Shown here: positions 34,092 through 35,100 of the stretch, one piece after another
Numbering within the stretch: position 1 is the first letter of the stretch
Layout: each line of letters starts with the position of its first letter
DNA from: Eledone cirrhosa
Taxonomy: Eukaryota
Reading direction: 5' to 3'
DNA length: 64,000 nucleotides
Assembly (NCBI GenBank): GCA_964016885.1
Contig: OZ024743.1
Location: forward strand, 238,142,001-238,206,000
The notes under the pieces: model-generated
Databases searched by the model: none
What the model saw: only the letters and a program-made list of their open reading frames with translations
What the model was told of the DNA's origin: nothing
Made by a program: the position numbers and the translations under genes

Positions 34092-35100
34092 GAATAAAGT
34101 GGTCCTTCATCAGTGATCTTCCAACCATCACAGGTATTCCTTCGCTTTAAAGACCATATACCTCCGGTTGGTGCGAGCAACGGCTAAAAAAAAGTCGTTG
34201 GGACACGTAAATAAAGGGTACAGCGAGAGTGTAAACAAACAAAGATGGTGAAGCAACGAAAAGTGAGGAAGAACGACTCAAGTCCCAAATTTCCATGAAT
34301 ATAAGTTCGGTGAAATCGTGAACGAGAGAGATTAAAGACCATCAAACCTGGTTGGAATGTGAGCAAGGAAGGAATTCCGTACAGGTCTAACGGGAGAAAG
34401 AAGGAGTCTAGTCTGTGAATTCGGTGAACATAAGTTCTGTGAAATCGTAGACGAGAGAGAGAAAAAAGGCGAACCAGCCTGACCAAGCGTGCGAAAGAAA
34501 AGAAATACGCACAGGTCAAACGGGAAGAAGGAGGACATCTTTACCCCCTCTAACAGTCACTCTGTTAGCCTCTCCCTCACTCTTCACTCACTCACTCTCT
34601 GTTACTACCACTCCTCCTCCTCCTCCTTTTTCCCGTTTGACCTGTGCGTAATTCTTTTCTTTCGCACGCTTGGTCAGGCTGGTTCGCCTTTTTTCTCTCT
34701 CTCGTCTACGATTTCACAGAACTTATGTTCACCGAATTCACAGACTAGACTCCTTCTTCCTCCCGTTAGACCTGTACGGAATTCCTTCCTTGCTCACATT
34801 CCAACCGGGTTTGATGGTCTTTATTCTCTCTCGTTCACGATTTCACCGAATTTAAATTCATAGAAATTTGGGACTTGACTCCTTCTTCCTCATTTTTCGT
34901 TGCTTCACCATTTTTGTTTGTTTACACTTGTGTTCCCTTTATTTACGTGTCCCAACGACTTTTTTTAGCCGTTGCTCGCACCAACCGGAGGTATATGGTC
35001 TTTTAATCGATGAAATACCTGTGATGGTTGGAAGATCACTGACGAAGGACCACTTTATTCATACGTAACCCATATGCAACCAAGCAGCACGTTTATTCTC
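34092..35100. mobile_element. Inverted pair of PLE-like terminal repeats (~440-bp arms) carrying an unusual structured motif
   Basis: 34092-34535 is the reverse complement of ~34620-35062; (TA)n on both sides; no ORF. Confidence 0.8.

Follow-up and report, generated by a model that had tools for sequence, protein, structure and literature searches.

A probable hammerhead of new wiring, with its core predicted to be open between A9 and G10.1, in non-coding repeats of Eledone cirrhosa

Here we describe an RNA motif of the Eledone cirrhosa genome that is, quite probably, a self-cleaving hammerhead of new wiring, whose core would be open between A9 and G10.1 and whose non-coding carrier repeats probably stem from the 3′ ends of Naiads, a clade of Penelope-like elements. 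The motif was encountered in a window, the whole stretch of DNA analysed here, that comprises 64,000 nucleotides of contig OZ024743.1 (assembly GCA_964016885.1, positions 238,142,001 to 238,206,000, forward strand). Covariation shows pairing in stems I and III, in helix c (the one directly before GAAA), in helix d, in hairpin b and in helix a, but not in a stem II continuous with CUGANGA. Judged from the sequences, the structure is real and covarying. It adds a new variant to the non-circularly permuted hammerheads, one that is probably active in its intact forms, and some Naiads, together with their non-autonomous derivatives, are likely to use it as their ribozyme.

A sequence-only reading of the window had reported three copies of the motif. 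Re-reading all three returned the same strands and coordinates (Table 1) and, in every copy, the non-circular order of core strands that had been claimed, with the cleavage site followed by GAAA and then by CUGANGA. A covariance model built from the window and related copies found these three copies in the window, all of which are among its training sequences. A fourth, weak match of the model (window 4062-4144, plus strand, E 0.22) resembles a decayed 3′ half of the motif. Two irregularities that the earlier reading had raised as caveats, GGAA in place of GAAA in copy 2 and a missing G in copy 1 (at 35007), which weakens stem II, turned out to be private mutations that differ from the family majority; two contig runs showed majority bases only. 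The ribozyme of copy 2 is likely inactive. H17 is U in copy 3 and C in most family B copies. Copies 1 and 2 lie in inverted orientation to each other, an arrangement of the Penelope type.

Table 1. Window coordinates of the motif copies, of the elements that carry them and of the parts of copy 1
Feature	Positions	Strand	Remarks
Copy 1	34949..35050	+	split-core type-SGC hammerhead, family A; H17 = 34995, predicted cut 3′ of 34995
Copy 2	34102..34204	-	family A; H17 at 34157; A13 mutated (position 34139)
Copy 3	28554..28655	-	family B; core intact; H17 at 28609
Family A non-coding element with copy 1	34537..35103	+	5′-truncated, (TA)n at end; ends approximate
Family A copy, inverted, 5′-adjacent	34089..34535	-	(TA)n at end
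Family B element with copy 3	28488..28958	-	5′-truncated, flanked by two (TA)n runs; ends approximate
Strand a	34949..34952	+	pairs with 35047-35050 as extra helix; RNA ends exit the core here
Hairpin b	34953..34974	+	at junction
Strand c	34976..34980	+	inferred stem II 10.x strand; partner 35006-35010
Strand d	34981..34986	+	partner d′ 35026-35031
Block S	34990..35002	+	stem III 5′ strand, U16.1, H17 (34990-34995); stem I 5′ strand (34996-35002)
Block G	35006..35019	+	c′/stem II 11.x strand (35006-35010), GAAA (35012-35015), stem III 3′ strand
3′ part	35032..35050	+	stem I 3′ strand 35032-35038, CUGANGA 35039-35045, a′ 35047-35050

The six-helix, two-pseudoknot structure was scored on 14 genome copies of families A-D and F, comprising the three window copies and 11 hand-picked representatives. 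In this set 93.5% of 490 cells were paired, as compared with 24-48% in slid controls, and double changes were seen in 13 pairs, with every one of the six helices contributing at least one; none of 500 shuffles reached that result, a figure that is not a probability because the 14 copies are related. The covariation that the sequence-only reading had listed helix by helix is thus borne out, and three of the helices do meet where stem II would be. Stem I was paired in 95.9% of cells with four double-changed pairs, stem III in 100% with one and helix d in 98.8% with three, the counts for helix a being lowered by three family C rows of alignment A3 that are off by one column at a′. Moreover, all helices are kept in family E, the sequence of which is unrelated to that of the other families, and the metagenome motifs likewise keep the helices in unrelated sequence. 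Nested folding, to which stem I and helix c are the pseudoknots, recovered helices a and b in 8/8 sequences and helix d and stem III in 7/8, with family E as the exception and z values from -0.7 to -3.7.

A descriptor of the full architecture matched dinucleotide shuffles at a rate of 0.05 per 200 kb and had no match in five coarser shuffles of 442 kb. When the 5′ extension was shuffled alone, at most one of 300 shuffles matched in 7/13 representatives. The observed score was reached by 44 of 300 such shuffles for family A, 3 for B, 7 for C, 38 for mg203, 5 for mg209 and 72 for mg274, so that for A, C and these three mg representatives the 5′ helices, taken by themselves, stand out little from shuffled sequence. 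The sequence-only reading had further warned of a TGAT/ATCA pairing in competition with stem I. This competitor does pair, in 85.7% of cells, which is below the value for stem I. Taken together with the second rival helix, formed by a stem I strand and a′, it shows no excess of double changes over shuffles, the joint result being reached by 412/500 shuffles when counted by pairs and by 73/500 when counted by cells. Both rival helices can form in families A-D and F but, being less well kept and absent from the distant versions of the motif, were rejected.

A stem II formed directly by the strands after CUGANGA and before GAAA was paired in 34% of cells and reached at most 2 bp in 14/14 representatives of the families and metagenome motifs; on these values the canonical type-SGC fold with a direct stem II is out. 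We infer that helix c takes this place and would be the true stem II, stacked under the core and bearing G10.1-C11.1, because it opens with a matching G-C pair in 9/14 representatives, namely family E and all eight metagenome motifs. G10.1, as supplied by helix c, is not covalently attached 3′ of A9. At 10.1/11.1, a mismatch or a non-G-C pair is found in families A-D and F, which leaves the window families without G10.1-C11.1. The junction contains no unpaired base in 6/8 metagenome motifs according to the automated assignment. Because the automated helix picker settled on other partners for helices a to c in several members of the group A-D and F, the helices of these families are taken from the alignment of the 14 copies.

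The sequence-only reading had proposed a new hammerhead topology or another self-cleaving motif. Its non-circular hammerhead core stands, and the interruption between A9 and G10.1 appears to be new; the order of the blocks S, G and C had already been published as type-SGC or HRIMA-1, where cleavage and the use of compensatory mutants validated it (Eckert et al. 2023, PMC10085705; this and the other papers cited by accession are drawn on in part). According to the portion consulted, that study assumed the three hammerhead blocks to be uninterruptible and reported type-SGC examples from metatranscriptomes only, with none in genomes of known organisms. Since its search patterns demand a direct stem II with G and C as the closing bases, the present motif was out of their reach. 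In the published HRIMA-1 alignment, S and G are followed by a joining strand, then by C, the stem II strand and a second joining strand. Here, the blocks S, G and C follow in the same order and the cyclic order is the same, with the last two strands moved 5′ of S; whereas CUGANGA of HRIMA-1 leads into the stem II strand and on to the joining helix, CUGANGA of the present motif leads into the separate helix a with hairpin b, and helix d keeps the same neighbours as the joining helix. Because the cyclic order is kept and helix c is read as stem II, the motif can be regarded as a circular permutation of type-SGC that is opened between A9 and G10.1.

In contrast, hammerheads of types I-III are circularly permuted and form a nested three-way junction. 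Rfam returned no ribozyme family for the window or the motif, nor for Naiad loci, of which 20 were scanned at the gathering score and 10 at E 0.5. With the type I hammerheads of Penelope-like elements and of non-LTR retrozymes (PMC8557442; bioRxiv 10.64898/2026.07.22.740005) the motif shares its position near the 3′ end of a Penelope-type unit, and its carriers share non-coding tandem monomers, partial tandems, inverted copies and microsatellite targets; those type I ribozymes are circularly permuted with a hairpin stem II, unlike the non-circularly permuted motif with six helices and two pseudoknots described here. As far as its available text goes, the retrozyme preprint uses type I models only. 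What appears to be new is the break of the core at A9/G10.1 by an extra helix and a hairpin, the animal genome as host and the membership in Naiads, a link that the sequence-only reading had not drawn. No published account of the architecture or of permuted hammerheads in Naiads was found in the openly readable literature, and an earlier description may exist elsewhere; the accessible parts of PMC13725137 and PMC10162972 contain nothing on the split-core architecture.

In the genome, which is microsatellite-rich and 3.0 Gb in size, at least five families of non-coding tandem repeats that target (TA)n are marked by the motif. First-look DNA searches yielded at least 1531, 1179, 1262, 1705 and 774 candidates for families A to E, respectively, counts that are lower bounds, with 40 candidates scored each and overlap possible between related families. 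A sixth variant, family F, was encountered when the genome was sampled at even spacing (200 kb in all), and because the genome sample is of this size, copy numbers are given as lower bounds only. The pyrimidine-rich monomers are mostly 526-806 nt long (one spacing is 432 nt) and are arranged in head-to-tail tandems with one ribozyme motif per unit. Their longest ATG ORF spans 49-113 aa, and an ORF with N-terminal GIY-YIG, CxC and DKA motifs and RT is absent from the window families. The top matches of families B and C are 98-99% identical, pointing to recent spread.

The 5′ ends of the insertions are scattered, without a pile-up at the cut site (7/154 within 5 nt), and most 3′ ends fall into clusters at a distance of 70-150 nt on the 3′ side of the predicted cut (28/35 at +122 in family B, 20/25 at +72 in C, 26/37 at +69 or +119 in A). 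Run-on of the 3′ end into (TA)n was observed in 29/37, 29/35, 21/25, 19/27 and 13/28 copies of families A to E, and 35/156 insertions overall, 16/39 in family A, exceed one unit in length. Targeting of (TA)n, 5′ truncation and tandem and inverted copies are thus present; these features correspond to those described for Penelope-like elements (PMC8557442) and, being common to other clades of these elements, are not diagnostic of one. Ten further loci (L299-L308, G000) represent more families in which GAAA precedes CUGANGA (the pattern matched 16 times versus 0 in controls); the S-G-C core scan was passed by 4/10 and the full descriptor by none, and L307 is a short tandem of ~105 nt.

For Naiads, the published parts consulted report no canonical hammerhead, 10 elements being marked HHR_core and 8 HHR_half_core, among them an octopus Naiad (Craig et al. 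2021, PMC8557442). Inspection by eye of the 3′ ends in the supplement of that paper revealed the a-b-c-d layout in two octopus, one ctenophore and four further records, as well as in three near-identical records among the coral entries, and the order C-S-G with a direct stem II in several nematode Naiad records; this partial survey covered 58/62 CUGAUGA places and 10 places each of three other core variants. In addition, 89 Naiad-type loci were gathered with a Naiad remnant of this genome, comprising the best 80 of 330 in metagenomes and 9/9 in genome contigs, and forming 63 clusters at 80% identity. Seven of these loci passed the strict descriptor on the sense strand and downstream of the RT. 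Two near misses (L198 and L200) and L209, where the motif lies upstream of the RT, bring the total to 10 loci, which belong to 6 clusters. Complete ORFs, in which GIY-YIG, CxC and DKA motifs at the N-terminus accompany the RT, are present in L199, L200, L201, L272 and L274, and the ORF of L209 has the same Naiad N-terminal part. In a tree of 51 RT fragments, calculated without support test and not including L205 and L209, the motif occurs in three separate places. An antisense match in L256 looks like chance. The hammerhead core is absent from most of the 89 Naiad-type loci, many of which are cut short, and 18/89 carry one of two other 3′ motifs.

We regard it as reasonably likely, though less so than the wiring itself, that a hammerhead with its backbone open at A9/G10.1, the RNA ends leaving via the fourth helix of a four-way junction, is the functional ribozyme of many Naiads across animal phyla, and that others use type-CSG or undescribed motifs. 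The window elements share with Naiads the preference for (TA)n, 5′ truncation and tandem and inverted structure (PMC8557442). Some Naiads have the RNA architecture of the window elements in their 3′ UTR, whereas the window elements encode no protein.

In this genome the best Naiad-like matches are broken or short; we found no intact Naiad, the Naiad-like 3′ ends yielded no ribozyme, and a short pattern modelled on the end of the published octopus Naiad matched 6 times versus 3 in controls. Because these remnants are broken and without ribozyme, the descent from Naiads rests on the shared architecture and a short similarity seen by eye, and the young families would have been moved by another Penelope-type enzyme or by an unfound Naiad. 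Five Penelope-type loci with long ORFs were considered as mobilising partner and rejected, as they have a C-terminal GIY-YIG and no split motif; apart from one adjacent family A insertion, they share no sequence with families A-E.

The preferred model is as follows. Helix d would take over the contact between stems I and II, and helix a with hairpin b would form a junction that keeps A9 beside G10.1 although the two are not covalently joined. Cleavage 3′ of H17 (34995 in copy 1) would divide tandem transcripts into units of 530-800 nt, which may then become circles. The enzyme would be a Penelope-type RT/endonuclease supplied in trans: after nicking a (TA)n target, it would begin reverse transcription within the RNA, at an AU-rich site located 70-150 nt 3′ of the cut, and the resulting copies would be 5′-truncated, partially tandem or inverted. 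Internal initiation of reverse transcription has been published for a Poseidon element, the one active Penelope system studied in vitro (PMC11167929).

Cleavage by the window families is the point at which a different reading departs: the hammerhead-derived fold would be real, but these families would cleave poorly or not at all and serve mainly as a structured handle for a retrotransposon protein. We consider this improbable. It would accommodate the loss of G10.1-C11.1 in families A-D and F, an alternative fold that is possible in 83-86% of their cells, the fact that each full copy implies read-through of the cut site, and the Poseidon assay, in which hammerhead cleavage needed protein and was dispensable (PMC11167929). 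It would also fit the frequent A13 mutants of family A, found in 10/28 bystander copies (two rows being one locus) as compared with a background of 2.5%, because of which core-dead units appear to spread or to arise often. However, CUGANGA, GAAA and UH are all present in 34/34 family B full copies (38/49 in family A), GAAA is intact in 11/11 bystander copies of family C, and the core is identical in six diverged genome families despite changed helices. Likewise, mismatches at 10.1/11.1 are also known from type I Penelope hammerheads (PMC8557442, supplement).

Far less probable still is that cleavage occurs only in a dimer or with strands of a neighbouring unit, in which case the apparent intramolecular knot would be a swapped-strand assembly. 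Minimal Penelope hammerheads act as dimers, the copies lie in tandem and some c strands are self-complementary, but single copies in Naiad 3′ UTRs possess all helices with short, consistent linkers. Moreover, published type-SGC RNAs with the same knot were cleaved as single transcribed motifs (PMC10085705). That core words and helices arose by chance or as a neutral by-product of repeat expansion is largely refuted and has next to no probability left. Families A-D and F do share ancestry, so that their covariation counts are not independent, and the descriptor itself looks for partners; against this, the complete layout is preserved in sequences that are unrelated to each other, and its position with respect to the Naiad RT is constant, the descriptor rarely matches shuffles at the rate given above, and 4-bp pairing of helix c across families occurs in just 12/182.

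If the self-cleaving hammerhead opened between A9 and G10.1 is the correct reading, it adds a form beyond the six permutations thought possible, explains why hammerhead searches failed in Naiads, a clade dominant in many invertebrate genomes, and takes non-circularly permuted ribozymes from anonymous metatranscriptome contigs to animal genomes, with thousands of copies. It would contradict the assumption of uninterruptible blocks (PMC10085705) and bear on ribozyme search patterns and on the structure at A9/G10.1. For engineering, hairpin b would offer a natural insertion point at the core.

Several observations were made alongside. The A13 hotspot, mostly A to U, was seen in tandem units, often beside an intact unit (L003, L005, L007, L011, L012, L013, L022 and L025); it may reflect a sub-lineage that is dead, an advantage of read-through under selection, or errors made by the RT at A13. 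In the 3′ UTRs of 13 of the 89 Naiad-type loci, without hammerhead core, we observed a conserved motif centred on GCUUAC and CACCUG (L206, L213, L214, L215, L219, L234, L236, L255, L257, L265, L270, L273 and L277), a candidate for a further ribozyme that had no Rfam match in five loci scanned at E 0.5. A second 3′ UTR motif occurs in five loci (L208:3410, L216:2855, L224:4086, L278:3402 and L285:4075), with no Rfam match in the three scanned. Type-CSG hammerheads with direct stem II were found in two Naiad 3′ UTRs (L281:4371-4430 and L283:5159-5230), a type that, as published, rested on two metagenome sequences, and L282 has a weaker G-C-S match. The ORF of L199 (298-4188) contains, C-terminal and after the RT, a ubiquitin carboxyl-terminal hydrolase domain (PF00443, E 1e-33), and the ORFs of its close relatives (clade L198-L203) are similarly long. 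Directly after the ORF stop of L224 lies a SECIS-like element (3720-3786; 31.9 bits, below the gathering score of 35), which fits the selenoprotein Naiads of PMC8557442. Nine contigs in bacterial genome assemblies encode Naiad-type RTs (L278-L286) and are probably contamination from host animals; viral contigs contained no Naiad relatives.

In the window, ordinary type I hammerheads are present in other repeat families, to which the sequence-only reading had already ascribed hammerheads. The stretch 36222-40388 is a 474-bp tandem array with two inverted arms, 99% identical units and a type I hammerhead in each, and is an ordinary non-LTR retrozyme. Fragments of Penelope-like RT/GIY-YIG ORFs from several clades lie at 13134-14144, 15701-17656 and 19582-21908, with further ones at 26494-27443, 32332-32970 and 44077-46048. 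An exon-like frame at 58199-58801 (plus strand) resembles what we take to be the N-terminus of an SLC22-type organic cation transporter.
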